DNA of 64,000 nt from a virus (lineage: Duplodnaviria; Caudoviricetes). Positions 3,515 through 20,170 of the stretch are shown here, piece by piece (position 1 is the stretch's first letter; the number at the start of each line of letters is the position of its first letter). The notes under the pieces are model-generated. The model was not told the origin of the DNA and searched no databases. It saw nothing but the letters and a program-made list of their open reading frames with translations. The stretch lies in IMG/VR virus record IMGVR_UViG_3300049009_000811, positions 32,001-96,000 of that record, one strand, 5' to 3'. A program made the translations under genes and the position numbers.

Positions 3515-3519
3515 CAGCC

Positions 3520-3676: not shown

Positions 3677-3710
3677 TTGTCCGGAGGTCAGTACACCGGT
3701 CACATCCAAT

Positions 3711-3740
3711 AAAAAAAGACCAGGGAATCTCCCTGGTCCT
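3711..3740 (-). terminator. intrinsic terminator
   Basis: GACCAGGGA-AT-C-TCCCTGGTC hairpin with an A7 tract (U-tract on the minus strand) after ORF 3746..4273. Confidence 0.75.
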
Positions 3741-3745
3741 CTCGC

Positions 3746-4273
3746 TTACTTCTCCTGTCCCGTCGCCTTGGCGATAAGGGCGCGAAGCTCGTCCCACAAC
3801 GGCTCGTCCTCGTCCCATCGGTTGGGAAGGTCCTCGAGCCTGTGAAGCATCTCCAGCATTTCGGGCGCAGCCGCTATCAGCCTGGCGTCCGCGACGCTCG
3901 ACTCCGTGTAGTAGCACCTTTCTTCCCTCTTGCCCTTCGGCACCTTCCACTCGTGACCAGCGATGAGGCAGATCCTGATCGGATACTTGTGATGGTTTTC
4001 GTCCTGGGTGAGATACAGATGTTCCGCCCTGTCGCCGACGGCGAAACCTTCGGCTTTCCAGGGTCCGGGCGTGTGAGCCATTTTTTCGCTCCTCGTGTGG
4101 TACAGGTATTCTTCTTCGTCGCATTCGACCGCGTTTATCAACTCGCCATTCGGATAGGCTTCCATAGCCTGTTCGTCCGCCTGGTCCATGTCATCCGCCA
4201 TGCAATAAAAAAACAACGTAAGTTTCGTGTCGCCTTTGTCCTCGCGCAACGACACTTTGAATGGTCTCATCAT
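3746..4273 (-). CDS. hypothetical protein, HTPGPW...LIAAAPE...AKATG family, with N-terminal extension
   Basis: MAHTPGPW and ADARLIAAAPEMLEML...ALIAKATG motifs; motif A upstream. Confidence 0.75.
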   Translation of the reverse strand: MMRPFKVSLREDKGDTKLTLFFYCMADDMDQADEQAMEAYPNGELINAVECDEEEYLYHTRSEKMAHTPGPWKAEGFAVGDRAEHLYLTQDENHHKYPIRICLIAGHEWKVPKGKREERCYYTESSVADARLIAAAPEMLEMLHRLEDLPNRWDEDEPLWDELRALIAKATGQEK

Positions 4274-4319
4274 TTTCTTTTCTCCTTTGACAATAGGGTT
4301 CCGCGTGAAGCCCGAACGG

Positions 4320-4718
4320 CTAGACCGGGATACTTATCTTGAAGTAATCCCAGGTCTTGCTGGATACATGCTCGACCTTGCCCCCGATGGACTCGACCGA
4401 TCTCGTGACCGACGACACGCCGGATCCAGAAGGGAAGAAAGCCTTCCGCACCTTCGTGACGACCCGAGCCTTGCCGCGACCCGACTTGACCTCGTCGTCG
4501 AAGAAGCCGATGCCCTTGGCTGTAGCCTCGTTCTTCAGCGCCGCTTCCTGCACCTGCGGGATCTGGTCCAGGCACTCCGCCAGAACCGTGGAAAGCTTGC
4601 AATAGCCGCAGCCCGAGGCTTTGGCGGTCGCAGCCCCACCTGGATGGTAGGCTACTGCGTGGGGGTTCATCCCCCAGGTCTTCGATTTCTTCCATTCAAC
4701 CTTCACTTCAATTTCCAT
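4320..4718 (-). CDS. hypothetical cassette protein
   Basis: Motif A (4782) and AGGAG RBS; its stop TAG is supplied by the next motif A. Confidence 0.75.
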   Translation of the reverse strand: MEIEVKVEWKKSKTWGMNPHAVAYHPGGAATAKASGCGYCKLSTVLAECLDQIPQVQEAALKNEATAKGIGFFDDEVKSGRGKARVVTKVRKAFFPSGSGVSSVTRSVESIGGKVEHVSSKTWDYFKISIPV

Positions 4719-4828
4719 TTCAAGTCTCCTTGTTGTTTCGTTTCCACACGAAGGTGGGGTTCCAGGTAAAACACGAACGGCTTCAAAAGAAAAAGGGCGA
4801 CCGTGTGAAGGTCGCCCAGGTTTCCGGA

Positions 4829-5320
4829 CTACGCCGCATCCCCTGCGGTTTCTTCCTCGCTGTCGAACAAGCTAACGATGTTCGAGCTTTTTACCACGAA
4901 GCAAGGCTCGTTGCTAGGCTTCTGGTCCGATGGCGTGAGGAAGCTGTTGAAAACTTCCTTCGTCACCTCGTTGCCGTCCACGAAGTAAACGACCTTGGGC
5001 TTGTTGTTCGCCGCGGGGTAGAAGCGGAAATAAAAGGTTTCCTCTCCACCCTTGGGGGTGTGCTTGATCACATGGGGGAATACCACCCATGTCCCGAACG
5101 GAAGAGGACCAACATCACCACGCTCGCCGGCGGCGATTCCGTCCTTGACGGATTTGAGGTTTTCAAACGCCTTGCCGGCGGTGAAGACCCCGGAGGTCAA
5201 TTTCTCCAGAAGCTTGCCCTTGAAGGCAGCCGCTGGTTTCTTGGTGGTGCGGAACTTCGCTTTCACGAATTGTCCCTTGACACCCAAAAACTTCATCACA
5301 TTCGGATCGTTCATTTCCAT
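4829..5320 (-). CDS. hypothetical cassette protein
   Basis: Motif A (5387); followed by hairpin GGGCGACC..GGTCGCCC at about 4795-4818. Confidence 0.75.
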   Translation of the reverse strand: MEMNDPNVMKFLGVKGQFVKAKFRTTKKPAAAFKGKLLEKLTSGVFTAGKAFENLKSVKDGIAAGERGDVGPLPFGTWVVFPHVIKHTPKGGEETFYFRFYPAANNKPKVVYFVDGNEVTKEVFNSFLTPSDQKPSNEPCFVVKSSNIVSLFDSEEETAGDAA

Positions 5321-5593
5321 TTCTCAATCCCCTTTTTAAAGTTTCCCACCACACGATGATGGGGTTCCAGGTCTTTGGCGAACGGCTCGCCATTAGTCAT
5401 TCGTTTCAAGTCCAAAAAGATTTCTCTTTTTTTTCCTTATTTCGTTTCCCACAATTGTAGGGTGCCAGATCCGGCACGAACGGCTCGCCTGGTCCGGAGG
5501 TCAGTACACCACATTCCCCCAGGTCGGCCGTTCGCCGAAAACCTGGCACCCTACCATCGTGTGGTGGAAACAATAAAACAAGGAGACTGAGAC

Positions 5594-5770
5594 ATGAACG
5601 AAAACCAGATCATCATCGAAGAAGCCCTCAATGCAGCTTGCCTAGCCGTACAAGAACGGATAGGTGTGACGGACGGGGGCTGGGCATCACTGTTCTTCAC
5701 TGGCGAGAATCGCCAGAAATTCGAGGATCTGTTCTCGGCTTACATTCGATCCGAGAAGTCCTCGGACTAG
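5594..5770 (+). CDS. 58-aa hypothetical protein (MNENQIIIEE...), below the ORF-track cutoff
   Basis: Motif A (5526), AAGGAG RBS, terminator at 5775-5803. Confidence 0.7.
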   Translation: MNENQIIIEEALNAACLAVQERIGVTDGGWASLFFTGENRQKFEDLFSAYIRSEKSSD

Positions 5771-5774
5771 GGAT

Positions 5775-5803
5775 AAAGCCCCGAAATGGGGCTTTGACTT
5801 TTT
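5775..5803 (+). terminator. intrinsic terminator
   Basis: AAAGCCCC-GAAAT-GGGGCTTT followed by a T-rich tail. Confidence 0.75.
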
Positions 5804-5919
5804 ACTGGAAACCGGTGTACTGACTTCCAGAGCCAGTAACCTGGACCAGGCGAGCCGTTCGCCCTGAACCTGGAACCCTATCATCGTGTGGCGGGAACAA
5901 TAAAACAAGGAGAATGGAA

Positions 5920-6075
5920 ATGGAAGAGATGAAGCCTAGCGTGGTGCTCATGTGGGTAGCGGCTGAGACTTCGGTCGCAGCCTGCATACTGATGGACGAT
6001 CAGGCATTCGCCAGCAAGCTAAGGAACGGGGCGCAGGTCCAAGAATTGGTAAGCTGGGTAAACGAAAACTACTAG
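5920..6075 (+). CDS. 51-aa hypothetical protein (MEEMKPSVV...)
   Basis: Motif A (5853), RBS, hairpin at 6081-6103. Confidence 0.7.
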   Translation: MEEMKPSVVLMWVAAETSVAACILMDDQAFASKLRNGAQVQELVSWVNENY

Positions 6076-6229
6076 GGGATATCCCGGGTTTAACGCCCGG
6101 GATTTCTCGATTCCAGGAAACCGGTGTACTGACCTCCGGAGCCAGTAACCTGGACCAGGCGAGCCGTTCGCCCTGAACCCGGAACCCTATCGTCGTGTGG
6201 TGGAAACGAAACAAACAAGGAGAATGAAG

Positions 6230-6541
6230 ATGAACAAGATCGACGAGATGCTGGAAGCGAAGATAAAGGAAGAATTGACACCGGTCGATATCGAGGAATA
6301 TTACGCGGCAGCACTCGACGACATTTACCCCGTCGTTGAGATAGGACATTCCAGATTCAGCCCGAGCAGTATCGTAAGGGAACTTTCCCCGACAGATTTC
6401 CGCTGCGGGATGAACGACTACATCGACGGCGACGACACGCTCGAGTACGTGGCTGACGAATGGTACAGAGCCGACGAAATCCAGAAGCTCCGCGAGGAGA
6501 TCGAGGAAGAGATCGAGGCTGCGGAAGCGGAAGAGGACTAG
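6230..6541 (+). CDS. acidic phage early protein
   Basis: Motif A (6162); very D/E-rich; LDD..PVVEIG..F.PS....L.P..FRCG.NDY pattern. Confidence 0.75.
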   Translation: MNKIDEMLEAKIKEELTPVDIEEYYAAALDDIYPVVEIGHSRFSPSSIVRELSPTDFRCGMNDYIDGDDTLEYVADEWYRADEIQKLREEIEEEIEAAEAEED

Positions 6542-6608
6542 CCGTTCGCCGTCAACTCGGCACCCTATGTTCGTGGCGGGAAACTTAACTTTAACAGGAG
6601 AATAAACC

Positions 6609-6806
6609 ATGTATGTAAAAGCAAAAACGACAGAGGAAAAATTGATCGATCTTGTTAAGGAGCTTGCTGGACATCTGGAAGATGTTTACATTCAACCTGA
6701 CTTTGATGAAAATCAGTATGGGCAAAAACTTTGCGATAGGGCAAATAAATTTGCCTATAAAGCTGATAAAAGAAGGAACGAAATCTACAAAAAAGCAGGA
6801 GTTTAA
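6609..6806 (+). CDS. hypothetical protein
   Basis: Motif A (6540) and AGGAG RBS. Confidence 0.7.
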   Translation: MYVKAKTTEEKLIDLVKELAGHLEDVYIQPDFDENQYGQKLCDRANKFAYKADKRRNEIYKKAGV

Positions 6807-6807
6807 C

Positions 6808-7059
6808 ATGACGGACACAATAAAATTGGCGAACCGGTTCAGGAAATTGCCGTTCGCCAGCATATGCGAGCAGATCGAGCCGCTGGCGAAGGAGATCGAG
6901 GCGTCGAAATTCGCGAACGCGATGGAGATCCTCCGTCAGGAGATAGAGGTCCACCAAGACTGCGACAACTGGATAAAGGCGGACGTGCTTTCAAAAGCAC
7001 TACGTGAAATCAGAACAGTCAGAGACAGGGCGCTTGCAGCCTTGGCACGTAACCCATAG
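6808..7059 (+). CDS. hypothetical protein (MTDTIKL...)
   Basis: AGGAG RBS, directly after the 6806 stop. Confidence 0.65.
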   Translation: MTDTIKLANRFRKLPFASICEQIEPLAKEIEASKFANAMEILRQEIEVHQDCDNWIKADVLSKALREIRTVRDRALAALARNP

Positions 7060-7089
7060 GCATGGAAACAAACAAACAAGGAGACTGAG

Positions 7090-7278
7090 ATGAAGAAATT
7101 CACGGTAAAGGTTTGCAGGATCTCATACGGGTTCAACGACATCGAGGTGGACGCGGAAACGCCGGAGCAAGCCGAAGAGCTTGCCCTCGAGAACGCTGGC
7201 GACTACCTATTCAGCGAAAAAAGCAGCGAATATACGACCGATGGCGCAACCGAGAAGGAGCATATAAATGGAAGATGA
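7090..7278 (+). CDS. small hypothetical protein (IEVDAETPEQAEELA, DpnD/PcfM-like pattern)
   Basis: AAGGAG RBS; EVxAxxxExAxE pattern. Confidence 0.65.
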   Translation: MKKFTVKVCRISYGFNDIEVDAETPEQAEELALENAGDYLFSEKSSEYTTDGATEKEHINGR

Positions 7279-7525
7279 TTATTTCCGCGTTCCGACCTGG
7301 ACGGAAGTCTGCAGGGAGTACGCGGCGAACGTAGGAGGGGATCGACCCGAGCAGGCTTGGATCCTCACCCCATGGGACACCTGGGAACGCAACCCAGCCT
7401 ATTCCGGCGTGTTCGCGGACGCCCCGCACCCGTTCATCTCGGTGGAAGACTTCTACGACGACGACGGAGGCGCGCAGGCTCCGGCACCGGAGAAGCCGAC
7501 TGAACCGGACGACTGTCCGTTCTAG
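7268..7525 (+). CDS. hypothetical protein
   Basis: AAGGAG RBS; stop overlaps motif A at 7524. Confidence 0.7.
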   Translation: MEDDYFRVPTWTEVCREYAANVGGDRPEQAWILTPWDTWERNPAYSGVFADAPHPFISVEDFYDDDGGAQAPAPEKPTEPDDCPF

Positions 7526-7585
7526 CCGTTCCCCGGCAACCCGGAACCCTATGGTCGCAACCTAACTTCAACAGGAGAATGAAAG

Positions 7586-7762
7586 ATGAGTCATACGCCA
7601 GAGAAAATAAATTCCGAGTTGCTCAACATGCTCATGAGAATGGTCGATGAATGTTCTTATTCCCATGTCACCCCCGAGGGCGTTGAAATCGCCAGCAGAC
7701 CGTGCCCAATCACGATGCAGCATGCCCGCGAAGCCATCGCAAAGGCGACAGGAAAAAGCTAG
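7586..7762 (+). CDS. 58-aa protein MSHTPE...AIAKATGKS (AKATG family)
   Basis: Motif A (7524), RBS; C-terminus paralogous to the 8295 and 3746 ORFs. Confidence 0.7.
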   Translation: MSHTPEKINSELLNMLMRMVDECSYSHVTPEGVEIASRPCPITMQHAREAIAKATGKS

Positions 7763-7819
7763 CCGTTCGCCCGACATCTGGAACCCTATGGTCGTGTGGT
7801 GGAAACGAAATTATAACCT

Positions 7820-8236
7820 ATGAGGATTCATGCCATGAAAAGAACAAGAACAGTAGAAATTGAAGATGTTTTAGATTCATGTGTAGAAACAGCAATCGAT
7901 AAAGTTAAGGATTTACTGGAAGAATACATAAAAGAAAACGATTCCGGTCCTTTGCCTGATATCAATAACGACTTGGATTACTCTGGCTCCGTTCACGAAA
8001 TAATCGATAGGTCTGTACCAGATTATTACAAGGTCATAGACGATACTTGGTATCTTTATAAAGAAGATTTGATCGAAGCTTACGAAAATTCCGGAATGGG
8101 CGACAATCCCATGGATGGCAACGGAACAGTTGCGATATATTGCTATATCGAACAAAAAGTAGGCGAATGGTACCGAAAAGAAGCGCAAGACATATTTGAT
8201 GAAATAGTCAGTAAGAAGAAGAAAAAGAAAAGCTAG
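7820..8236 (+). CDS. acidic protein, possibly Ocr-like anti-restriction DNA mimic
   Basis: VHEIIDRSVPDYY resembles T7 Ocr IHMAADNAVPHYY; acidic, 138 aa. Confidence 0.55.
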   Translation: MRIHAMKRTRTVEIEDVLDSCVETAIDKVKDLLEEYIKENDSGPLPDINNDLDYSGSVHEIIDRSVPDYYKVIDDTWYLYKEDLIEAYENSGMGDNPMDGNGTVAIYCYIEQKVGEWYRKEAQDIFDEIVSKKKKKKS

Positions 8237-8294
8237 CCGTTCCCCGACATCTGGAACCCTACAAACGTAACTCAACACTAACAGGAGAAGAATA

Positions 8295-8585
8295 ATGACC
8301 GATAAACCAAAGTGGGACTTAGAAGAAGTTCCTTTTGAAAACAACGATCCTGCGGGTGGATGGTATCTCCACTTTGATACAGAGGCAGATCATGAAGTTC
8401 TATACATGAGTAAAAGCAATGTATCAGAAGAACAAGCCAATCTAATAGCAGCGTCGCCAGAGTTGCTGGAAACGCTGAAAGACATTTCTGTTTGGTTGAC
8501 AGCACCTTCTACGGACAAAGCAACCATCGATCATTGGAAGCAAAAGGTTTCAACAGCCATCGCAAAGGCGACAGGAAAAAGCTAG
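8295..8585 (+). CDS. hypothetical protein (LIAASPELL...AKATG family)
   Basis: Motif A (8235), RBS. Confidence 0.75.
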   Translation: MTDKPKWDLEEVPFENNDPAGGWYLHFDTEADHEVLYMSKSNVSEEQANLIAASPELLETLKDISVWLTAPSTDKATIDHWKQKVSTAIAKATGKS

Positions 8586-8651
8586 CCGTTCGCCCGACAT
8601 CTGGAACCCTATGGTCGTGTGGTGGAAACGAAACAAAAGGGAGACATAGAG

Positions 8652-8825
8652 ATGAATGACTCAGTGAAAAAATGGATCAACGGAAAGTCCGACAGCTGCA
8701 CCTTCACCGTCGACAAGGTTTCGACGGGGCACAAAGCCCACCGGGGAGGCGTCGGGATACACGACACCCGCCCGAGACGGCAGCGCACCAGGGGCGCAGC
8801 CCAGCGCAACGCGATGCGCGACTGA
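8652..8825 (+). CDS. small basic protein (HDTRPRRQRTR)
   Basis: Motif A (8584), AAGGGAG RBS; terminator at 8883-8916. Confidence 0.65.
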   Translation: MNDSVKKWINGKSDSCTFTVDKVSTGHKAHRGGVGIHDTRPRRQRTRGAAQRNAMRD

Positions 8826-8882
8826 CAAACGCGGCGAAAGCCGCCAGGCGTGGCAACCCCACACACACAATTGCCACGCCAA

Positions 8883-8916
8883 GGAAACCCAGGTCAATAG
8901 CCTGGGTTTCTTTTTT
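8883..8916 (+). terminator. intrinsic terminator
   Basis: GAAACCCAGG...CCTGGGTTTC plus T6. Confidence 0.8.
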
Positions 8917-9032
8917 GCCCGGAACCGGTGTACTGACCTCCGGAGCCAGCCTGTCTCCAGGTTCCAGCCGTTCGCCGACCAGGCGGAACCCAATCATTGT
9001 GGGAAACAACAAACCTTAAAAGGAGAATGAGG

Positions 9033-9926
9033 ATGATCAAGGTAAACAAGATTTTGCGGAACCCGAACATCACCGGCGACAGGTCAAACATCACCGGCGA
9101 TCCGATAAACATCAGGGGCGACATCACGAACATCAGGGGCGACGTAACGAAACTCAGGGGCGACGTAACGAACATCAGCGGCGACGTGACCCTAATCAAC
9201 CGGTGTGGGACCATTTACGGGATCGAGGGCGACGTCTCGGGAATCAGCGGCGACGTGACGAAAATCAAGGGCGACGTCTCGAATATCAGGGGCGACGTGA
9301 CCAAGATCAGTGGAAAGGTGGACGGGGTCAAGCCACACCCTGGGGGCGACAGCCATCAAACACGTCCAGGTCTCATGGGCGACGTGTCCAAGATCAGCGG
9401 CGACATATCCAATCTCTACGGCGACGTGTCCGGCATCTGGGGGAATGTTTCCGGGATCATAGGCGACGTGTCCTATATCAAGGGCGACGTGACCGATTTC
9501 TGCGGTGACGTGAACGGTCAATATCAACGTGTCACTGAGGGAGACATAAAAGACCTGGCGACGAACTATGGAAAGGTTAAAAAACTGATCAATTCCGGCA
9601 ATCTTGTTGGAAAATATCTTGAAATCAATGGCGATGCAAAGAACATCTGGGGCAACGCCTATAGAATCAGCGGCGACGTCTCGAATATCTGTGGTGACAT
9701 CAACAAGATCCATGGCTACGTCTCGGGAATCAGCGGCGACGTAACGAACATCGAGGGCGACGTCTCGAGAATCAGGGGCGACGTCTCGAAGCTCAGCGGC
9801 GACTTGTCCGGGATCAAGGGCGACGTGACCGGGATCGAGGGCGATTTCTCGTTCCTGACGGGAGAACAACGCTCGAAGGGAATCTCGATCTCTATAATCC
9901 TAGACATGTTGGAAAAAGCTGGCTAA
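9033..9926 (+). CDS. heptapeptide-repeat (GDV(S/T)xIx) probable beta-solenoid protein
   Basis: More than 25 seven-residue repeats with 21-bp periodicity (GGCGACGT); paralog at 17008. Confidence 0.8.
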   Translation: MIKVNKILRNPNITGDRSNITGDPINIRGDITNIRGDVTKLRGDVTNISGDVTLINRCGTIYGIEGDVSGISGDVTKIKGDVSNIRGDVTKISGKVDGVKPHPGGDSHQTRPGLMGDVSKISGDISNLYGDVSGIWGNVSGIIGDVSYIKGDVTDFCGDVNGQYQRVTEGDIKDLATNYGKVKKLINSGNLVGKYLEINGDAKNIWGNAYRISGDVSNICGDINKIHGYVSGISGDVTNIEGDVSRIRGDVSKLSGDLSGIKGDVTGIEGDFSFLTGEQRSKGISISIILDMLEKAG

Positions 9927-10032
9927 CCACGCGGAAACCTGGAAGCCCTGGCGTGACTGCCGGGGCTCCAGCCGTTCCCAGTCAACCCGGAACCCAATCA
10001 TTGTGGTGGCAAGCAACAAACTATAAAGGAGA

Positions 10033-10242
10033 ATGAAAATGCTGGTAGGAGAATTGAACCAGGGTCAGAGGCTCGCTTACAAGCTTCTGCTCCGGAGGGA
10101 CGCGAAGATATACGACTGGGACGACACGTTCGTCGCCAGGATGCTCGACGACAACGAGTCGGTCCTCGGCGGCGAGGGATCGATAGAGGCGGGACGCAGG
10201 CTGGTGCCGTACTTCAGGTCCGTCTACCACGCGAGACGCTAG
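10033..10242 (+). CDS. hypothetical protein
   Basis: Motif A (9970), RBS; terminator at 10241-10268. Confidence 0.7.
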   Translation: MKMLVGELNQGQRLAYKLLLRRDAKIYDWDDTFVARMLDDNESVLGGEGSIEAGRRLVPYFRSVYHARR

Positions 10243-10268
10243 ACCGGGAAACCCCCGGTCTTTTTTTT
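10241..10268 (+). terminator. intrinsic terminator
   Basis: AGACCGGG-AAACC-CCCGGTCT plus T8. Confidence 0.8.
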
Positions 10269-10355
10269 CCCCGGAAACCGGTGTACTGACCTCCGGAAAG
10301 CGAAACTCGGCACATATATAGGGTCATAACCGCCGTCCAACAAAAGGGAAGACCG

Positions 10356-11036: not shown

Positions 11037-11062
11037 CACGGGAACGGACGCGCGGAAACGAA

Positions 11063-13278: not shown

Positions 13279-13902
13279 ATGAACCTAAGGCAACATTCGA
13301 AGGAAGGTCAGGACATCGTCCTGTACCACTGGATCAGGACGGTCGGCGAGACCAACAGGGTCGCCGTCGAGTTCGGGGCGCGCGACGGCTTCGACTGCTC
13401 CAACGTGAGGATGTTCGCGCAGCTCGGCTGGAGGCTGGTCCAGTGGGACGCCAACCAGTCCGGGGACGTGAGCAGGGAGTTCGTGACGAGGGAGAACGTC
13501 AACGACACGTTCGCCAGGCACGGCGTCCCGCCCGAGCCGGACATACTCTCCATAGACGTGGACGGCAACGACTACTGGATATGGGAAGCGCTCACGTACC
13601 TCCCGAGGATCGTCGTCATCGAGTACAACGCCAACTTCGCGATCGGCGAGAGCGCCGTCGTGAGGTATGACCCCAACAGGAAGTGGACCGGGGACGCAGC
13701 CTACGGGGCTTCGTTCACCGCCATGAACGACCTGGCGAGGCGCAAGGGATACGTGTACGTCGACGAGGTCGGTCACGACCTGGTTTTCGTGCGCGAGAGC
13801 CTGCTCCTCCCCAAAGCCGTGAACCCGACCCTGCCGAGGCACATCCACAGGCAGACCGGATATGACCAGTTCACCGCGCCGACGCGCCAGATAAAGCTGT
13901 GA
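13279..13902 (+). CDS. FkbM-like class I SAM methyltransferase
   Basis: VEFGARDG, LSIDVDGNDYWIW, IEYN and GAS motifs; CATACATA late-type box, leaderless start. Confidence 0.75.
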   Translation: MNLRQHSKEGQDIVLYHWIRTVGETNRVAVEFGARDGFDCSNVRMFAQLGWRLVQWDANQSGDVSREFVTRENVNDTFARHGVPPEPDILSIDVDGNDYWIWEALTYLPRIVVIEYNANFAIGESAVVRYDPNRKWTGDAAYGASFTAMNDLARRKGYVYVDEVGHDLVFVRESLLLPKAVNPTLPRHIHRQTGYDQFTAPTRQIKL

Positions 13903-14002
13903 AGCCCGCGATCCCGCAAACGTGAAGCCGACCGGTGAAGCCGTTCCCAGACCGACCGGAACCCCATGGGCATGTGACGGAAACCGAACCAAGGAGAATG
14001 AA

Positions 14003-14107
14003 ATGAACGACATGAAGACACGCGAAGTGACGGACATCCAGTGCAACGAGGATACCGGGGTGACTCCCGAGCAGATCTACCTGGACATGCTGGCGATGGC
14101 TGCCTAG
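14003..14107 (+). CDS. 34-aa peptide (MNDMKTRE...)
   Basis: Motif A (13939), AAGGAG RBS. Confidence 0.55.
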   Translation: MNDMKTREVTDIQCNEDTGVTPEQIYLDMLAMAA

Positions 14108-14335
14108 GACAGGACGTGAAACCCGAAACCAAAGCCCATGGGGATTGCCCCGTGGGCTTTTCCTTTTAGGCGCCGGAACACGTGAAGCCCGGACCCGACG
14201 CCGGACCGCGTGAAGCAGCCATGCCGACGTGAAGCCGTGAAACCGGTGTACTGACCTCCGGACCCTGGCGCGGAAACGAGAAAGCGAGCGAGTCATCGCT
14301 GACTCGCTCGCTTTACCCCCTAGACCGCGCGGAAC

Positions 14336-14758
14336 CTACAGTATCTGGTACTGGTTCGGGTACTTGCCGTCAAGCCAAACCTTGGCTTTCGCCAGTTCCG
14401 TGCAGCCAGTAAGCGTCCGGAAAGTTCCCCTATCGTCCGTGGTGAGACGGAACACGGTTCCCTTCCTCTTGGCTTTCGCCAGTTGCTTCTCCTTCTCGAA
14501 GTTCTCTAGGAGCTGGTCGAGGAAAGTCTCGACATTGTGGGTGTATTGAACACCAGAGAATTCATATTGGGGCTGAGAGGCTACATGAGCCTCAAGACTC
14601 GCTTGCGATCCGACGCCGAAGTACTCGACATCGACCGGACCGCCCTCTCCTCCGTTATGGACGAAGGCGAACCTTTTGCCGTCCACGTTCAACGTGAACT
14701 GGTAACCGCCACCATCCCTCGTGTCCCAAGTTTTCAATCCCTTTATCTTGAAGTCCAT
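14336..14758 (-). CDS. hypothetical cassette protein
   Basis: Motif A (14827), AAGGAG RBS. Confidence 0.75.
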   Translation of the reverse strand: MDFKIKGLKTWDTRDGGGYQFTLNVDGKRFAFVHNGGEGGPVDVEYFGVGSQASLEAHVASQPQYEFSGVQYTHNVETFLDQLLENFEKEKQLAKAKRKGTVFRLTTDDRGTFRTLTGCTELAKAKVWLDGKYPNQYQIL

Positions 14759-14831
14759 TTTTCCGTCTCCTTTGTTTTATTGTTCCCTTCACACAACCAT
14801 AGGGTGCCAGTTCGCCAGCGAACGGCTCAGC

Positions 14832-15017
14832 CTAGGCGATTCTGGTTATCCTCATGTCGCCACGGATCTCGTCACCGACCTCGGAACACGAAACCCAATC
14901 CTCGAACTCCTCGAAGGACTCCTCGAAGGATTCGTCATACAAGGCGAGGACTCTGTCGCCCTCGACCTCGGTGTTGTATCCACGACCAGTAAGATCCTTC
15001 ACGAAGAATTTCTTCAT
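14832..15017 (-). CDS. 61-aa protein (KKFFVKDLTGRG), homologous to the C-terminal domain of ORF 32754..33215
   Basis: Motif A (15084); internal homology seen directly. Confidence 0.7.
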   Translation of the reverse strand: MKKFFVKDLTGRGYNTEVEGDRVLALYDESFEESFEEFEDWVSCSEVGDEIRGDMRITRIA

Positions 15018-15133
15018 TTCCGATCCCCTTGATTTTAGTTTCCCGCCACACGACAATGGGGTTCCAGGTCGCCAGCGAACGGCTCGACCGAAGCCCTACT
15101 GGGACCGGAAGTCAGTACACCGGTCCCAGTCAT

Positions 15134-15163
15134 AAAAAAAGCCTAGGTCGATGACCTAGGCTT
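15134..15163 (-). terminator. intrinsic terminator
   Basis: A7 plus GCCTAGGTC-GAT-GACCTAGGC; related hairpins at 15468 and 16278. Confidence 0.75.
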
Positions 15164-15168
15164 CCATT

Positions 15169-15339
15169 CTAGTCGCGGCGGCAATATTCGAGGCGGACAG
15201 CCTCGATGGCAGCCGTGAAGGCTTCCTGGTTCCCGCTCGCCGCCTTGACCGCCGCCATCAAGGCGACATAAGGGTTGCTGGAAGCCTCGAGGGCGTCCAG
15301 GCGGGAGTTTACACCGACAAAATATTCGGCTTCGGTCAT
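15169..15339 (-). CDS. 56-aa protein (MTEAEYFVGVNSRLDALEA...)
   Basis: Motif A (15411), AGGAG RBS; N-terminus shared with the 17972 ORF. Confidence 0.7.
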   Translation of the reverse strand: MTEAEYFVGVNSRLDALEASSNPYVALMAAVKAASGNQEAFTAAIEAVRLEYCRRD

Positions 15340-15496
15340 GTTTCGATCTCCTGAAAGAGTTTAAGTTCCACACCACACAACCATGGGGTTCCAGGTCGAC
15401 CACGAACGGCTCAGCCGAAGCCCCACTGGGACCGGAAGTCAGTACACCGGTTCCAGCCATGAGAAAAGCCCAGGTCATTGACCTGGGCTTTTCTGG

Positions 15497-15820
15497 TTAT
15501 CCAACCACGCAGACCTCAAGGTTCTCTTCCAGCAATTGCCGTACCATGTCCCCGTTGTTATCCAAGGCAATCCGGTGAACACTTGCCAAATCCTTGTTCT
15601 GATATCGCCTGCATGGGATGACGCTGACGATTTTGTAGAAGTCCTTGTTAAGACGGTGAGTCTCCCAAATCCCCTCTATCTTGCAAACACTAACACTTGT
15701 CTTGTATGCCTTGTCGACATGCCTTGTCGACATTTTAACCCTGGTATTACCACTTGTCCACGATTCGGTTATTGTTCTTTTTACCGAATCTTCAAACTTG
15801 TTGTTCTCTACAATCATCAT
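15497..15820 (-). CDS. hypothetical cassette protein
   Basis: Motif A (15891); terminator at 15464-15493. Confidence 0.7.
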   Translation of the reverse strand: MMIVENNKFEDSVKRTITESWTSGNTRVKMSTRHVDKAYKTSVSVCKIEGIWETHRLNKDFYKIVSVIPCRRYQNKDLASVHRIALDNNGDMVRQLLEENLEVCVVG

Positions 15821-16109
15821 CTTTCGATCCCCTTCAAAGTTTAAGTTCCACACCACACAAACATGGGGTTCCAGGTCATCCCCGAACGGCTCAGACTATA
15901 CTAGATCGATCCGCGGCAACAACGCAATACACCTAGCCGACGAAGCCCCGAAACGCCACCTGTTTTCGACGATCACCGGTAAATCGACCTGCCATGCCAT
16001 TCCAGGACATATGGACGAAAACAGGCACATGACCTGGCGAGCCGTTCACGGTCGACCCGGAACCCCATGGTTGTGTGATGGGAAACAAAAAACTTTCAGG
16101 AGATCGAAA

Positions 16110-16271
16110 ATGAAGAATCTTAGCGCGGTAAAGACCTTTGAGCAAAATTGCGAGTGGATTGACGCGGCAGCCGCCGCCCTCGAAAAACTCGAGGCTGCCA
16201 AGCTCGCGGTTATCGCCGCGCAGGCTGCGGCAGAAGCCGCCGAGGCTGAGGTCGAAATACTTTTCAGTTAA
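16110..16271 (+). CDS. Ala-rich 53-aa helical peptide
   Basis: Motif A (16040), AGGAG RBS; terminator at 16275-16304. Confidence 0.65.
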   Translation: MKNLSAVKTFEQNCEWIDAAAAALEKLEAAKLAVIAAQAAAEAAEAEVEILFS

Positions 16272-16423
16272 GGAAAAGCCTAGGTCCAAGACCTAGGCTT
16301 TTTTCATGCCCGGAAACCGGTGTACTGACCTCCGGACCCAGTGGAACCAGGTTCCAGCCGTTCGCCAAAGACCCGGAACCCCATCATCGTGTGGCAAGCA
16401 ACAAACTTTCAAGGAAATCAAAA

Positions 16424-16585
16424 ATGGCTAAGTTCTTTTTCGGCGCTTCAATCGTGTTGGCGACTTTCTCCTGCGTGGCTGCGAGCCATGCCGAGCCGAA
16501 TATCGGCGTCGGGATAGTGCTGACGACCCTGACCGCCGCCATGGCGTTGATCACGGCACCGGAGGCTCTCGGTCTCGACAAGTAA
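16424..16585 (+). CDS. small two-TM membrane protein
   Basis: Motif A (16356); hydrophobic segments. Confidence 0.6.
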   Translation: MAKFFFGASIVLATFSCVAASHAEPNIGVGIVLTTLTAAMALITAPEALGLDK

Positions 16586-16661
16586 GCCGAGCCGTTCGCC
16601 GAACACCCGGAACCCTATGGTTGTGTGGTGGGAAAAGGAAACAAAAAAAGGAGAATGGAAA

Positions 16662-16865
16662 ATGGAAGAACTGGCAGAAATGATCTACGACCGAAACCAG
16701 GAAACCATCTCGTCATTCTTCGAGGACGAGCGGTACGGAGAGGACGAATTCCTCGATGAATTGGTGGACGACATCGTCTCGGCGATCCAGATCGCCGAGG
16801 GCGAGGAATTCGCCCCCGAGGTCGAGGACCTCATCAGGGAACAAGTCATGAACGGTCTGACCTAG
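16662..16865 (+). CDS. 67-aa hyper-acidic protein
   Basis: Motif A (16590), AAGGAG RBS; strongly D/E-rich. Confidence 0.7.
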   Translation: MEELAEMIYDRNQETISSFFEDERYGEDEFLDELVDDIVSAIQIAEGEEFAPEVEDLIREQVMNGLT

Positions 16866-17007
16866 GACTCAGCCCAGGCTAAACGCCCGGGCTTTCCCTT
16901 TTCCCGGAAACCGGTGTACTGACCTCCGGAGCCGGACCCCTGGCGAGCCGTTCGTGAACTACCCGGAACCCTACAAACGTAACTCAACCCCAACCGGAGA
17001 ATCGAAG

Positions 17008-17598
17008 ATGTCTACTTGCGAGAAGAAACTGGTAAATGCAGGAAACCTCACCGGAGACCTTTCCGGGATATGGGGCGACGCGGGCAAGCGATATGATTGC
17101 GATATTACCGAACACCTTTCCGGTCTCACGGGCGACGCGACTAATATCAGGGGCGACGTGTCCAAAATCCGTGGCGACGTTACCGGGCTCAGGGGCGACG
17201 TGTCCGGGATCTGGGGATATGTGTCCGCGATCACGGGCGACGTGTCAAATCTCAGTGGCGACGCGTCCTTGTTCAGCCGGTGGGGATACGTGTCCAACCT
17301 CTACGGCGACGTGTCCGGGATCAGGGGATATGTGCACAATCTCAAGGGCGACGTTACCGGGATCAGGGGCGACGTGTCTGGTCTCCGTGGCGATGTCACC
17401 GGTCTCAAGGGCGGTGTGTACGGGCTCCGTGGCGATGTCACTGGGATCGAGGGAAGCGTGTACTGGCTCCGTGGCGACGTCGAAGACCTGGTTCTCCAGG
17501 GAAAGCTGAAGCGTACGGGCAAACATGAACCCGAGAAGACCAAGGAATCTCGACTGGTCGAGAAGCCAGACGATATCAAGACCTTGTTCGGCAAGTAA
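17008..17598 (+). CDS. heptapeptide-repeat (GDV(S/T)GLx) protein, paralog of 9033
   Basis: About 20 seven-residue repeats; motif A (16946). Confidence 0.8.
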   Translation: MSTCEKKLVNAGNLTGDLSGIWGDAGKRYDCDITEHLSGLTGDATNIRGDVSKIRGDVTGLRGDVSGIWGYVSAITGDVSNLSGDASLFSRWGYVSNLYGDVSGIRGYVHNLKGDVTGIRGDVSGLRGDVTGLKGGVYGLRGDVTGIEGSVYWLRGDVEDLVLQGKLKRTGKHEPEKTKESRLVEKPDDIKTLFGK

Positions 17599-17679
17599 AA
17601 ATCAGAAGCCGTTCCCAATCAACCCGGAACCCTACCGTCGTGTGGCGGAAACGAAAAAAACAAACAAGGAGAATGGAAA

Positions 17680-17907
17680 ATGGCTGATTTCACCTGGGCT
17701 TGCGGCACTGATCCCGTGGATTCCCAATCGAGGATCGCCGTCATGGGACACATCCACCGCGAGACCCTGCAGAGTCACGCCTTCAGGGTCCAGGAGCTGC
17801 AGGGCGAGCTCCAGCAGGCTAACGAACGGATCCTCCTCCTCGAGGGATACCTCAAGGCGATGAGCGAGGGGGAGAGTTTCGCCCTCCCACCGAACCTGGG
17901 CATCTGA
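17680..17907 (+). CDS. small coiled-coil protein
   Basis: Motif A (17607), AAGGAG RBS. Confidence 0.7.
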   Translation: MADFTWACGTDPVDSQSRIAVMGHIHRETLQSHAFRVQELQGELQQANERILLLEGYLKAMSEGESFALPPNLGI

Positions 17908-17971
17908 CCCTGCGTCCTAGCCGTTCCCAATCAACCTGGAATCCCATAACTTAAACCAAGGAGACCGAAAC

Positions 17972-18154
17972 ATGAATGAAGCCGAATATTTCATCGCGGT
18001 AAACGCCCGCCTGGACGCCCTCGAGGCTGCCCGGGAAGAAGAACCCAAAGCCGAGAAGCACTGGAAGGACCAGATAACCTGGTCCTGCGGCACGGAAGGC
18101 TGCTACGGAAGCGTGTCCGGGATCAACATGCCCTGCAGCAACTGCGGGGGCTAG
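17972..18154 (+). CDS. small Cys-containing protein (MNEAEYFIAVNARLDALEA...)
   Basis: Motif A (17919), RBS; terminator at 18160-18190. Confidence 0.7.
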   Translation: MNEAEYFIAVNARLDALEAAREEEPKAEKHWKDQITWSCGTEGCYGSVSGINMPCSNCGG

Positions 18155-18319
18155 GACGCAGCCCTGGTTTCAAAGCCAGGGCTTGCCTTTCCCGGCAAAC
18201 CGGTATACTGACCACCGGCGCAACCTGTCCCGGACATCCCGAGCCTGCGTCCGGAAGCCGTTCCCAATCAACCCGGAACCCCATCACCGTGTGGTGGGAA
18301 ACTTAAACCTTCAAGGAGA

Positions 18320-18547
18320 ATGAAAATGATCGAAGCAAAAGAAACCGAACGCCATGGCGGCGCCTACGACAGGGGTCGCGCCGACTCCTACTACAACCGC
18401 CCCCGGCTGCCCCATATGTTCGCCGGGGCGACATACGCCAGCCCGCAGGTCAACAAAAATGACATGACCGCGGAGCAGGTGGCGGATTACAACGCCGGCT
18501 ACAACTGGAACGAGGAGTTCGGGGACAAGAAGGACTGGGGGGGATAG
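18320..18547 (+). CDS. conserved-looking phage hypothetical protein (HGGAYDRGRADSYY...GDKKDWG)
   Basis: Motif A (18256), RBS. Confidence 0.75.
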   Translation: MKMIEAKETERHGGAYDRGRADSYYNRPRLPHMFAGATYASPQVNKNDMTAEQVADYNAGYNWNEEFGDKKDWGG

Positions 18548-18589
18548 AACCCCGGCTTCCCGCGGGAACCGGTGTACTGACCTCCGGAG

Positions 18590-19460
18590 CCAGTCCGGGT
18601 CGACCAGTCTAACCAGTATCACCAGTCTCATCGGGTCGTCCCGAGCCTGCGTCCCATCTTTCCGTGAACGCCCGTACATCGAACCGTGTCCGGGTCGACC
18701 GGTCTAACCAGTATCACCAGTCTCATCGGCGCGTCCCGGCGTCCCGGTTCGTCCAGTGAAGCCAGTAGATCCAGTCTCCCCGGCAGAACCGTCCGGGTCG
18801 TCCCGAGCCTGCGTCCCATCTTTCTGTGAACGCCCGTACATCGAACCGTGTCCGGGTCGACCGGTCTAGCCAGTATCACCAGTCTCACCGGCGTCCCGGC
18901 TTTCCAGTATCGCCAGTGAAGCCAGTATGACCAGTAGCGCCAGTAGAGCCTGCGTCCAGTGACTCCAGTGGAACCAGTGGAACCTGCCGGAACCGTGTCC
19001 CGAGCCACCGCCCGGTGGCTCCCGTCTGCCCGGCTCGCCGGGGAAGCCCCGAGACGCCACCGGGTTTCGACGATCCCACGCGAATCGACCGAGAACGCCG
19101 CCTCCGGGAAACCGAGCTGGAAACGGCGACGCAGCCTGGCGTCGGTCCAGTAGCGCCAGTAGATCCGGCAGGTCCGACCCGGCACGGGCGTTGTCCGGGT
19201 CGTTCCAGCCCGGTAAAACCTGTAGAACCGGTAGAGCCAGTCGCTCCATCAGGACCTGTCCGGGTCGTTCCCGAGCCTGCGTCCCGCAGTGATATTGAAC
19301 GCCCGTACATCAAACCGTGTCCGGGTCGTCCGGTCCCGGCATGACCTGTAGAACCGGTAGAGCCAGTGGAACCTGTCCGGGTCAGTCCCGAGCCCGCGTC
19401 CCTGGTCGCCCCGGTCCGACCAGCCGGGTATGACCTGTAGAACCGCGGTTGCCCGCGTCC
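18590..19460. repeat. about 870-bp repeat-rich region with near-identical 94-bp units (18632-18725, 18794-18887; degenerate 19261-19333) and 9-bp-periodic CCAGT arrays
   Basis: Direct reading; no RBS-led ORF with normal codon usage. Confidence 0.8.
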
Positions 19461-19532
19461 CGAAGCCGTTCCCGGGCAACCCGGCACCCTACCATCGTGT
19501 GGCGGGAAACGAAAACTCAAGGAGAATGAAAC

Positions 19533-19799
19533 ATGGATGCCAAGAAAATGAGCGACGCGAACCTGAAGGCTGCGTACTGGGCTGCTTACAACAAGAAGGA
19601 AGCCGCCCACCTGGCGTGGCGCACGGAGACCGGCTTCGGTCGGGTAGCCCCGGACCTCGAGGCTGCGTTCCGGGCAGCGTGCGCGGAGTACGAGCCGCTC
19701 CTCGACGAGTGGGACGCCCGGTTCTCGTCCGAAGAGGACGACGTACGCGCCCGCGAGGCGATCGCGGACCGGTACGAGGTCAACTGGAGCGAGGAATAG
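19533..19799 (+). CDS. hypothetical cassette protein
   Basis: Motif A (19464), AAGGAG RBS; hairpin at 19807-19831. Confidence 0.75.
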   Translation: MDAKKMSDANLKAAYWAAYNKKEAAHLAWRTETGFGRVAPDLEAAFRAACAEYEPLLDEWDARFSSEEDDVRAREAIADRYEVNWSEE

Positions 19800-20019
19800 A
19801 CCGGTAGCCCCGACCACGGGGCTTCACCTTTACCCCGGAAACCGGTGTACTGACCTCCGGAGCCCGGCACCCATGTCGCCGACCGGGTCCGGACCCTTCG
19901 GGCTGCGCGGACCGTGGCGGTCATTCCCCCTATATATATTGTATCAGGCGAGACGTCCGCCGGGAACGGGCGAGCCGAAGGGTCCAGCCGTTCGCCGGAT
20001 ACCCGGCACCCCATGGTCA

Positions 20020-20100
20020 CGCGGACCGGGGGATCAAGCCCGGTCCGCGTGAAGCTACGCGTAAACATACTCAACGAGCCGGGCTAGTCGCCCGGCTTAA
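20020..20100 (+). ncRNA. candidate small structured RNA
   Basis: Motif A (19986) followed by no RBS or ORF but two hairpins (GCGGACCGGG..CCCGGTCCGC; GCCGGGC..GCCCGGC), then motif B. Confidence 0.4.
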
Positions 20101-20170
20101 CTTGGACCGGCGACCGGTGTACTGACCTCCGGAGCCGGGCTACGTCTTACAGGTCGGATGGGGGGATAGC

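Follow-up and report, generated by a model that had tools for sequence, protein, structure and literature searches.

The window analysed here is a 64,000-nt stretch (G000:C1:32001-96000) of a 115,719-bp IMG/VR virus contig, the source of which is a freshwater jumbo phage. It contains 15 copies of a short sequence, motif B (ACCGGTGTACTGACCTCCGGA), where none is expected by chance; 100 dinucleotide-preserving shuffles yielded no match. At up to three mismatches, nine of the 15 matches are perfect, three carry two mismatches, and three carry three. These are the near-identical copies reported in an initial annotation of the window, and all were recovered at exactly the same positions. Towards the genome-wide count called for there, the contig supplies 21 copies, confined to contig positions 804-52133 (the first 52 kb), with zero copies in the remaining 63 kb. 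All 21 are intergenic, compared with an intergenic share of 20.4% in that region, and all 20 GTACTGAC octamers of the contig fall within motif B copies.

The copies in the window are listed below in window coordinates, together with one -10-like element; motif A is a promoter-like motif described in the next section.

3680..3700, minus strand: motif B, perfect; after the terminator of minus-strand gene 3746-4273
5493..5513, minus strand: motif B, variant left arm TGTGG; between two divergent motif-A promoters, no terminator
5811..5831, plus strand: motif B, two mismatches; terminator, motif B, 22 nt, motif A, gene 5920
6120..6140, plus strand: motif B, perfect; terminator, motif B, 22 nt, motif A, gene 6230
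8924..8944, plus strand: motif B, perfect; terminator, motif B, 22 nt, motif A, gene 9033
10277..10297, plus strand: motif B, perfect; after a terminator, no motif A; 3' end exactly 17 nt before TATATAGGG
10315..10323, plus strand: TATATAGGG, -10-like element; one of the contig's three TA[AT]ATAGGG sequences
14242..14262, plus strand: motif B, perfect; terminator and GTGAAG array before it, convergent terminator opposite
15104..15124, minus strand: motif B, two mismatches; terminator, motif B, 20 nt, motif A; minus-strand gene cluster
15431..15451, minus strand: motif B, two mismatches; terminator, motif B, 20 nt, motif A; minus-strand gene cluster
16316..16336, plus strand: motif B, perfect; terminator, motif B, 20 nt, motif A, gene 16424
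16910..16930, plus strand: motif B, perfect; terminator, motif B, 16 nt, motif A, gene 17008
18199..18219, plus strand: motif B, most divergent copy (three mismatches); terminator, motif B, 37 nt, motif A, gene 18326
18568..18588, plus strand: motif B, perfect; 20 nt past a stop codon, then 985 bp of repeat-rich DNA without a called gene
19841..19861, plus strand: motif B, perfect; after a terminator, motif A 125 nt downstream
20113..20133, plus strand: motif B, perfect; after a terminator, gene 20171 with its ATG 37 nt downstream, no motif A; last copy in the contig

Motif B is a GC-rich, asymmetric, and nearly invariant site of 17-21 bp, and it is not a dyad. Its conserved unit is GTGTACTGACCTCCGGA, and loss of the left hexamer is tolerated: this hexamer is replaced in 7 of the 21 copies (by AGATGT twice, and by ACGCGT, ACAGGT, ATCGGT, TGTGGT, and others). 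The flanking hexamers ACCGGT and TCCGGA are each self-palindromic, as initially described, but with only CCGG in common they do not form a pair of inverted arms. The suggestion that the site is methylation-sensitive found no support, with CCGG not unusual in this DNA (744 observed vs. 655 expected).

The initial annotation also noted that not every copy precedes a gene, and indeed no gene is called downstream of 3680(-), 14242(+), or 18568(+). The copy at 3680..3700 points at a GTGAAG(rc) array and has neither gene nor promoter downstream, and its orthologue in a close relative is identical at 20 of 21 positions. The copy at 14242..14262, also with no gene or promoter downstream, has a 21/21 orthologue amid flanks of about 84% identity with indels. 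Elsewhere, the copy at 5493..5513 lies 8 nt and 14-17 nt from its flanking motif-A promoters, gene 10356 starts 58 nt downstream of the copy at 10277..10297, and in the relative's counterpart of 19841..19861, motif A is only 13 nt downstream.

Organization of the linkers

Motif B forms the centre of a composite linker, in which a terminator hairpin is followed after 14-19 nt by motif B and, after a further 8-37 nt, by the promoter-like motif A. Motif A, made up of a GCCGTTCG box, N9-10, GGMACCC, and nAynnn, is the commoner of the two motifs, with 64 copies. On the upstream side, motif B starts 14-19 nt (mostly 16-17 nt) past the terminator stem in 14-15 copies, which bears out its initially described placement shortly after terminators, and 40-47 nt past the upstream stop codon in nine copies. 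On the downstream side, the same-strand GCCGTTCG box of motif A begins 8-37 nt past the 3' end of 12 copies. Spacings from motif B to motif A are 8, 9, 16, 20, 22, 37, and about 80-130 nt, with no constant helical phase; inverted copies sit 12-14 and 77-127 nt from motif A, and both orientations relative to motif A occur.

The two motifs also occur apart. At least four strong terminators of the same region (contig 7815-8004, 14956-15075, 18798-18977, and 36719-36828) lead straight into motif A without motif B, and motif B is the sole conserved upstream element for the genes at contig 21798(-), 42356(+), and 52171(+). The sequence TA[AT]ATAGGG is found only three times in the contig, twice exactly 17 nt past the end of a motif B copy, and the genes behind these two pairs lack motif A. 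Two copies, window 5493(-) and contig 21826(-), lie in divergent promoter regions without a terminator, which indicates that motif B is not terminator-dependent. There is also a tandem array at contig 804-874, comprising three copies here and five in the relative with a period of 25-27 bp, that is located 77-127 nt upstream of a motif-A promoter; the triple is antisense to a plus-strand gene and faces its 3' end.

Across the contig, plus-strand copies outnumber minus-strand ones by 13 to eight, and the strand tracks local gene direction. This suggests a function tied to transcription units rather than to genome polarity, so roles in genome entry or partition, which were considered initially, fit poorly, as does one in packaging. 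The downstream gene is co-oriented with motif B within 27-106 nt in 13 copies (14 including window 5493(-), at 172 nt), while 5-7 of the 21 have no co-oriented downstream gene. Co-orientation with the upstream transcript, which had been proposed as a general property, holds in 15 copies but breaks down at the tandem triple, at window 5493(-), and at contig 21826(-).

Conservation of motif B

Among the 21 paralogous copies, mean pairwise identity is 0.94 at positions 6-21 and 0.78 at positions 1-5, compared with 0.27-0.45 in the flanks. Likewise, in 16 orthologous pairs from the phage and its close metagenomic relative, motif B is 97.3% identical, while the flanks are 88.3% and 77.4% identical (Fisher p=2e-15). 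The concern raised initially, that motif B might be no better conserved than the duplicated DNA around it, is thereby removed for paralogues and orthologues alike, and the excess of identity over the flanks argues for selection on the sequence itself. The existence, conservation, placement, and polarity of motif B are direct observations. Altogether, motif B is a real and strongly conserved site, most likely a recognition site that serves as a transcription control element and not as a recombination site.

Gene gain and loss between relatives

Synteny junctions were mapped against the close relative Ga0209500_10000060. Of the 16 junctions, about 12 fall within motif A or adjoin it, with overlaps of 36-79 bp, and overlapping motif-A copies are found at the junctions of single-gene gains and losses. 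Overlaps of this kind are what homologous exchange between the repeated linkers leaves behind. A cassette specific to the relative (L105 4268-4566) carries its own terminator and motif B.

The initial annotation likened motif B to a recombination site and proposed testing whether breakpoints map to its 9-bp core. If gene cassettes were moved by site-specific recombination with motif B as the core site, its position at the edges of cassettes would be accounted for, since single genes are clearly gained and lost in this region, and one junction does abut it, 3 nt after window 19861. Even so, we consider this very improbable. That junction is the only one of the 16 to do so, and most of the others map to motif A; the hexamers do not form the mutual inverted repeats of attC, dif, or att sites, and the left arm is dispensable, being replaced in copies that keep the core and right arm intact. 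Among the 169 ORFs of the contig, which is estimated to be 24% of the genome, Pfam recognized no domain of the integrase, recombinase, resolvase, or transposase type. The breakpoint map and the Pfam result thus leave the analogy unsupported, and the map by itself already refutes it for the most part.

Candidate functions of motif B

Almost no regulatory logic has been mapped for jumbo phages from metagenomes. Here, a three-part grammar of terminator, motif B, and promoter-like motif A spans 52 kb of orphan genes, and comparison with the close relative indicates that its linkers double as substrates for gene shuffling. Motif B is the best-conserved part of this grammar and offers a 17-bp bait for the regulator of the whole accessory-gene region. 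The bait sequence is also present in a low-GC element that shares the lakes with the phage but is unrelated to it, which makes a testable, culture-free case for shared regulation between the two mobile elements. If motif B instead proves to act as a promoter or to mark nicks, it would represent a new specificity for either.

Our tentative preference is that motif B is an operator or upstream activating site for a putative sequence-specific DNA-binding regulator. A single such protein would recognize the double-stranded site through the functional core GTGTACTGACCTCCGGA and act on initiation at the promoter just downstream. Motif B would then be the middle module of linkers that delimit transcription units in a 52-kb region of small accessory genes, with the terminator hairpin and T-tract before it and motif A and a leader after it; at two putative promoters lacking motif A, it fills the -50 to -30 zone. 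Protein binding, and activation or repression as its effect, are what we infer from these features. A position ahead of or over the -35 region of a promoter, as for UP elements and class I/II activator sites, is found for the 12 copies at 8-37 nt from motif A, and also for the two copies 17 nt before the -10-like TA[AT]ATAGGG, both of these being putative promoter elements. Tandem arrays with a period of 25-27 bp upstream of a promoter have the geometry typical of cooperative operator arrays. Against this preference, motif B lacks the fixed helical phase and orientation of UP elements and activator sites, and its variable spacing to motif A in both orientations would be atypical of activators in contact with RNA polymerase. 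The much tighter terminator spacing (14-19 nt) suggests coupling to the terminator instead, and the two perfect copies at window 3680(-) and 14242(+) lack a downstream promoter or gene in both directions. Pfam found no HTH, ParB, or sigma family among the 169 ORFs of the contig (an estimated 24% of the genome).

The resemblances to known systems are each partial. The promoter-early stem-loop (PeSL) elements of T4-like phages are terminator/promoter cassettes (Arbiol et al. 2010, PMC2839356; Comeau et al. 2014, PMC4122927). Like them, the linkers are small composite units repeated between small orphan genes of a hyperplastic region: 14-15 join a hairpin and T-tract to motif B, motif A, a leader, and an ATG. 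The indels between close relatives are again bounded by the repeated unit, consistent with homologous exchange. Unlike PeSL promoters, motif A does not fit the sigma-70 consensus TTGACA-N17-TATAAT, matches to which show no excess in window 1-20000 (seven found vs. 7.5 expected). Furthermore, GC-rich motif B would occupy the place of the PeSL AT-rich tract, is present at only ~60% of terminator-promoter junctions, and also occurs alone. The lambda OR1-3 and P2/P4 Ogr/delta sites are 17-21 bp long, some of them in tandem with a period of ~24-25 bp, at about -40 to -90. Motif B shares their length (17-21 bp), its occasional tandem arrangement, and its location upstream of promoters, but it is not a dyad, its spacing and orientation vary, two copies have no nearby promoter, and its regulator is only putative.

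The contiguous block could, with lower probability, be a promoter in its own right, of the single-block type, for a dedicated polymerase or holoenzyme form. Units with both motifs might then, at the same modest odds, have two promoters of different class or timing. T7-, T3-, and SP6-type promoters are contiguous blocks of ~20 bp, nearly identical in ~20 copies, oriented with genes and often just after terminators. Motif B matches this description as a nearly invariant 17-21-bp block in 21 copies that follows terminators at unit starts, mostly with a co-oriented gene beyond, and variable spacing to motif A would pose no problem. This reading would also suit the three genes with motif B as their only conserved upstream element and the orphan copies that precede short ORF-less stretches ending in hairpins (window 14263-14335 and 19862-20090), which could be small RNAs. 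In the distant relative G001, individual genes carry a contiguous 29-nt motif in a comparable style, although the likeness is not significant (p about 0.06-0.11). However, single-subunit RNA polymerase promoters are always co-oriented with a gene, which 5-7 of the 21 copies are not; the 3-5 tandem copies at contig 804-874 are inverted and point away from genes, and motif B has no AT-rich melting segment ahead of its 3' end. The phage family encodes sigma factors, and sigma-factor promoters normally have two parts. Searches of the contig and four relatives (144-340 kb), all of them incomplete genomes, turned up no RNA polymerase gene of the T7-like or multisubunit kind; the first of these searches lacked a positive control, its PF00940 profile having zero matches in G000-G004 and none in control genomes either.

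The tight upstream and variable downstream spacing would be expected if motif B were a terminator-coupled roadblock or insulator, an alternative from the initial annotation that is still a live rival, if a somewhat doubtful one. A protein just past the T-tract might, on this unlikely account, block polymerase that reads through or retain it over the terminator, shielding the next unit. The distance of 40-47 nt from the stop codon in nine copies, the 15 copies co-oriented with the upstream gene, the two conserved copies that follow terminators without a downstream promoter, and the relative's extra cassette that brings its own terminator and motif B all agree with it. Still, the two copies between divergent promoters lie where nothing reads through, the tandem array has the opposite orientation to the terminator that it follows, and at least four strong terminators do without motif B; the constant spacing could come from descent of terminator and motif B as a single duplicated module. 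Considerably less probable is a mark for site-specific single-strand nicks in virion DNA, of the T5-like, phiKMV-like, or tf type. Known nick motifs are short, asymmetric, and multi-copy, and motif B is likewise conserved, polar, multi-copy, and, as in LUZ19, intergenic (PMC3517423, PMC3604761). The LUZ19 nick motif CCTACTCCGG is the only detectable intergenic motif in that phage (PMC3604761), and the phage tf nick consensus is TACT/RTGMC (PMC3517423). CTCCGG and TACTG are present within motif B, the former hexamer in common with the phiKMV-type motif, and the contig encodes two HNH endonucleases (Pfam). The resemblance is nonetheless limited to 5-6 nt in otherwise different sequences. Localized nick motifs occupy a single strand genome-wide, but motif B, known here from assembled sequence, lies on both strands (13 plus, 8 minus) in line with local transcription.

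Occurrence in unrelated low-GC contigs

Several lake metagenomes contain unrelated contigs (36-43% GC) on which the 19-21-mer of motif B is likewise arrayed in tandem. In contrast to these multi-copy occurrences, 185,579 species genomes gave single matches only, below a rough chance estimate. This distribution suggests a dedicated trans-acting factor of mobile elements. Together with the conservation described above, the recurrence in an unrelated element supports the initial proposal that motif B is probably a protein-binding site under selection. Ogr/delta sites are common to P2 and its satellite P4, unrelated replicons that answer one regulator. It is conceivable, though unlikely, that motif B is similarly the site of a trans-acting factor common to the ~55% GC jumbo phage and the 36-43% GC element in one freshwater host. 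The small element might in that event, with no greater likelihood, sense, titrate, or hijack the transcription regulator of the jumbo phage as its satellite, hyperparasite, or competitor, or the roles might be reversed. If so, cis-sites common to a jumbo phage and a second element could directly reveal cross-talk in their regulation. In the low-GC element, dense motif B arrays and related GTGTACTG sites adjoin its own sigma-factor gene.

Motif B and its copies

Motif B is a new, sharply defined cis-element within a known architecture, namely regulatory cassettes like the promoter-early stem-loop (PeSL) cassettes of T4-like phages. We regard it as a real finding and not an ordinary one, and its connection with an unrelated mobile element was unexpected. 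Its copies are named here by window position and strand. The window holds 15 matches to the 21-mer ACCGGTGTACTGACCTCCGGA at up to three mismatches, and shuffled sequences hold none. This agrees with the 15 near-identical copies of the initial annotation; the whole 115,719-bp IMG/VR contig (G000) carries 21, all within contig 804-52133. Every occurrence of the octamer GTACTGAC in the contig falls within one of these copies. All 21 are intergenic, in a region of which just 20.4% is intergenic sequence, and their strand tracks that of the local genes (13 plus, 8 minus).

Mean pairwise identity among the copies is 0.94 over positions 6-21 and 0.78 over positions 1-5. In the adjoining 10 nt it falls to 0.45 (upstream) and 0.37 (downstream), with ~0.3 beyond. 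Based on this profile, the actual conserved unit is GTGTACTGACCTCCGGA. Of the two palindromic hexamers originally described as flanking the site, the left one is replaced in 7 of the 21 copies, while the core and right arm are conserved. A hairpin formed by motif B was rejected by inspection: the sole pairing available is a 4-bp CCGG/CCGG stem around an 11-nt loop, which the tandem copies lack. The suggestion that the CCGG arms are methylation-sensitive gained no support from base composition, as CCGG is neither depleted nor enriched on the contig (744 vs 655 expected). A string search of the literature with the core decamer turned up nothing beyond primers and unrelated sequences.

Placement within composite linkers

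We called 172 ORFs on the contig, using a simple model of codon usage and ribosome-binding sites, and inspected every intergenic region of contig 1-56 kb by reading. A generic scan for terminators and promoters showed no excess over shuffles, so we identified terminators by going through the copies one by one. Nearly every small gene of this stretch is preceded by motif A, which consists of GCCGTTCG, N9-10, GG(A/C)ACCC, nAynnn, and CGT..., then a leader with AAGGAGA and ATG. The start of motif A often coincides with the upstream stop codon. Several strong terminators lead directly into it with nothing between, so a promoter is the economical reading. Loose matches to motif A number 64, all but one within contig 952-51988 (in the window, 817-19990), and the pattern has no match in IMG/VR. 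The lone copy outside the cassette region is at window ~50986 (-), just downstream of an ORF with an RNA polymerase alpha C-terminal domain (alpha-CTD).

Motif B is rarer than motif A and is found only at unit boundaries. In 14-15 copies, a terminator hairpin is followed after 14-19 nt (the T-tract plus a CCGGAA-like stretch) by motif B and after another 8-37 nt by motif A; nine of these terminator-B-A copies begin 40-47 nt past the upstream stop codon. Two copies are flanked by divergent promoters and have no terminator [window 5493(-) and contig 21826(-)], and three are found ahead of genes without motif A, at 27, 58, and 37 nt upstream of ATG. The sequence TA[AT]ATAGGG occurs three times in the whole contig, twice exactly 17 nt past the 3' end of motif B and before two genes without motif A. 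This spacing would put motif B at about -50 to -30 relative to a -10-like element. Three tandem copies at contig 804-874 have a 25-bp period, lack the left arm, and are in inverted orientation, with a terminator on one side and a motif-A promoter on the other.

Motif B does not always precede a gene, as had been noted from the sequence alone. Window copies 3680(-) and 14242(+) follow terminators at convergent junctions and have no gene or promoter ahead, and 18568(+) faces a 985-bp repeat stretch. Both promoterless copies touch GTGAAG arrays, with eight GTGAAG copies beside 3680 (window 3515-3680) and three to four beside 14242 (window 14180-14240); GTGAAG copies are also present at contig 1-416. 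The start of the cassette region in a relative has 27 GTGAAG copies in a 1.5-kb non-coding stretch (L106:3400-4900), in units of ~50 bp of the form AAACCAGGTCTTnAATTGAyGTGAAG. The 985-bp stretch (window 18589-19532) has no called gene and is built of 162-bp tandem units with a 9-bp periodicity, nnnnCCAGT. Its minus strand reads as fragmentary collagen-like G-S/A-T repeats, in a frame that overlaps a plus-strand gene and a motif-A copy.

Close relatives and cassette shuffling

One metagenome scan with the motif B 18-mer yielded 25 stretches, including a group of close relatives of this phage with 75-97% nucleotide identity. The main close relative, Ga0209500_10000060 (101.8 kb), carries at least 17 exact copies. 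Across 16 orthologous pairs, motif B is identical at 327 of 336 positions, compared with 88.3% identity in the 50 nt upstream and 77.4% in the 50 nt downstream (Fisher p=2e-15). Thus, conservation above the flanking DNA, a point at issue since the initial annotation, is evident. The two promoterless copies are also conserved in this relative, and its tandem array has five copies.

Many single-gene gains, losses, and replacements separate G000 from Ga0209500_10000060. About 12 of the 16 junctions in the colinear chains map within or next to motif A, where the blocks overlap by 36-79 bp; others are at the 5' edge of terminators or within genes. Just one abuts motif B, at whose core the initial annotation had proposed looking for breakpoints between relatives. 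An extra cassette specific to the relative carries its own terminator and motif B. In the PeSL cassettes of T4-like phages, orphan genes are shuffled when repeated terminator/promoter units recombine (PMC2839356, PMC4122927), and we see the same shuffling pattern across repeated linkers here. The exchange substrate is the whole linker, chiefly its motif-A part; inside the linker, motif B is the best conserved module and does not mark the crossover point. We rejected the proposal that motif B itself is a recombination site as highly improbable, on the breakpoint map, the anatomy of the arms, and the lack of a recombinase in Pfam searches of 169 ORFs of this ~24%-complete contig.

Distant relatives

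The distant jumbo relatives G001-G004 (144-340 kb) share 59% identity in the baseplate wedge protein; both motif B and motif A are missing from them. G001 has its own contiguous ~29-nt motif, TAGGTC(C/T)A(G/T)TGTACCCTA then gtgGGTGTaAC (also given as TAGGTCCAGTGTACCCTAGTGGGTGTAAC), with 62 copies within 28 kb (G001:C1:265224-293133; L147, L148), one ahead of each small gene. Its TCTATTG variant (15 copies) comes after terminators in ~9 of 15 cases, and its TCCAGTG variant (45 copies) comes after ORF ends in the copies inspected. Thus, a cassette array with a special signal form at unit starts is a family trait, and motif B is lineage-specific. The likeness between motif B and the G001 motif (CC[GA]GTGTAC) is not significant (p 0.06-0.11), and we set it aside as evidence for a common origin.

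A second carrier of motif B

The other multi-copy 18-mer matches came from eight contigs of 36-43% GC in at least six lake assemblies. These low-GC contigs have no tblastx similarity to G000, no motif A, and no GTGAAG arrays. Non-coding stretches of 1-3 kb in them, mostly at contig ends, hold 25 copies of A(T/C)CGGTGTACTGACCTCCGGA:

L115:1-1500, low-GC array locus
L101:9800-12589, low-GC array locus
L111, L112, L117, L119, L121, and L122, low-GC contigs with array loci

The motif B copies there are interleaved with other repeats that have the common core GTGTACTG, including a 47-bp tandem unit containing TGCGGTTGTGTACTGA and a further repeat, CAACTTGTGTACTGTATTGG. These dense non-coding arrays hold three types of GTGTACTG-bearing site, one of which is the motif B 21-mer. 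Genes flanking the arrays encode sigma-factor-like, helicase, DUF932, DUF2130, FtsK/TrwB-like ATPase, and PD-(D/E)XK nuclease proteins; the FtsK/TrwB-like ATPase and helicase have no match in G000-G004.

The rest of the metagenome matches are single copies within coding DNA, which we read as chance, as we do the one exact 17-mer match in IMG/VR, also within coding DNA. A search of 185,579 species genomes with the 18-mer gave seven single matches, vs roughly 17 estimated by chance, and no multi-copy genome. Many copies in the two unrelated elements are identical over 19-21 nt, and host-like contigs show no sign of such sites. This favors a dedicated trans-acting recognition factor that mobile elements carry; gene conversion and a general host site both fail to explain the identity.

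Possible functions of motif B

Based on its placement, polarity, and conservation, a role for motif B in transcription, as a double-stranded DNA site, is well supported. We tentatively favor regulation of initiation, in which motif B would be an operator or upstream activating site, because it is near promoters in 17 of the 21 copies, would take the -50 to -30 position at two TATATAGGG promoters, and is present in divergent promoter regions without terminators. Two analogies point the same way: the period of the tandem array resembles operator arrays, and motif B fills the place of the PeSL AT-rich tract.

That motif B is an autonomous promoter seems unlikely to us, even with its contiguous sequence and the three genes that have motif B without motif A. 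Tight terminator-to-B spacing and the two conserved promoterless copies are what a transcription roadblock or insulator would predict, and we hold this role, raised in the initial annotation, to be rather doubtful. A nick site is suggested by analogy only (PMC3517423, PMC3604761) and is very improbable given that motif B occurs on two strands.

Candidate binding proteins

Pfam scans of 169 ORFs detected no HTH, ParB, sigma, integrase, or transposase family. Two proteins, one with an alpha-CTD and one HEAT-like, are leads, not evidence. The first is:

Window 50999-51424, minus strand, 141-aa ORF with RNA polymerase alpha C-terminal domain (Pfam E 1e-17)

The best solved match of this ORF is the RNA polymerase alpha-CTD chain 3gfk_B, which we take to be from Bacillus subtilis. 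The equivalents of R265 and G296 are kept and those of N268 and K298 are changed, presuming the E. coli numbering. For the conserved N-terminal 65 residues, a Cox- or HTH_17-like character is possible but no more than a lead: their ESM Atlas look-alikes are Cox or HTH_17 (0.89-0.90), and AlphaFold2 confidence is <55 in this part, where the model is unreliable. Relatives carry two alpha-CTD paralogues, and in them a gene for a small, weakly HEAT-matching protein directly precedes the alpha-CTD gene, 12 nt upstream. The alpha-CTD ORF is also present in G001, which is without motif B, and no homologue was found in the low-GC loci examined; as a motif B binder, it remains a lead.

The small HEAT-like protein is the sole one found in common between the contig and the low-GC loci (window 38871-39266 vs L101:5591-5968; 38% identity, E 8e-15), and it belongs to a broad family, with 324 library proteins at E <=0.001, many of them long and multi-stretch. 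Pfam gave only a weak HEAT_2 match for this family, in the L101 homologue. The shared protein was rejected as the binder; it is probably not DNA-binding because it follows an in-frame signal-peptide-like mini-ORF. This mini-ORF has 28 codons and closes with a TGA, past which the reading frame runs on into the 131-aa ORF of the shared protein (window 38679-39266, +; see also L124:7610-8160 and L188:4176-4643). The in-frame TGA is also present in a 54-59% identical relative, which suggests read-through or recoding.

The phage family encodes sigma factors; G001 has four Sigma70_r2 matches, three above the Pfam cut-off. Searches of the incomplete genomes G000-G004 detected neither a multisubunit nor a T7-like polymerase, and the T7-like profile was blank in controls too.

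Identity of the contig

CheckV estimates the contig to be ~24% complete, and a full genome of about 480 kb is expected. It is a fragment of a tailed jumbo phage, based on a tape-measure ORF and a baseplate wedge protein encoded downstream of it:

Window 52120-63873, 3917-aa ORF matching tape-measure PHROGs

Were the tape-measure-like ORF a true ruler, it would imply an unusually long tail. Viral contigs yielded 284 confirmed relatives of the wedge protein, and some of these contigs are 250-340 kb long. A megablast search of the INPHARED phage collection found no nucleotide relatives. Rfam searches over 120 kb detected two tRNAs only, both within the cassette region, and place motif B in no known RNA family:

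Window 372-443, minus strand, tRNA gene amid plus-strand genes
L011:203-274 (contig 20203-20274), tRNA-Met(CAT) gene

GGCC is nearly missing from the contig (17 observed vs 655 expected), and GCGC is halved (364 vs 655 expected). The contig also encodes five ORFs with C5-methyltransferase domains, one Vsr endonuclease, and two HNH endonucleases.
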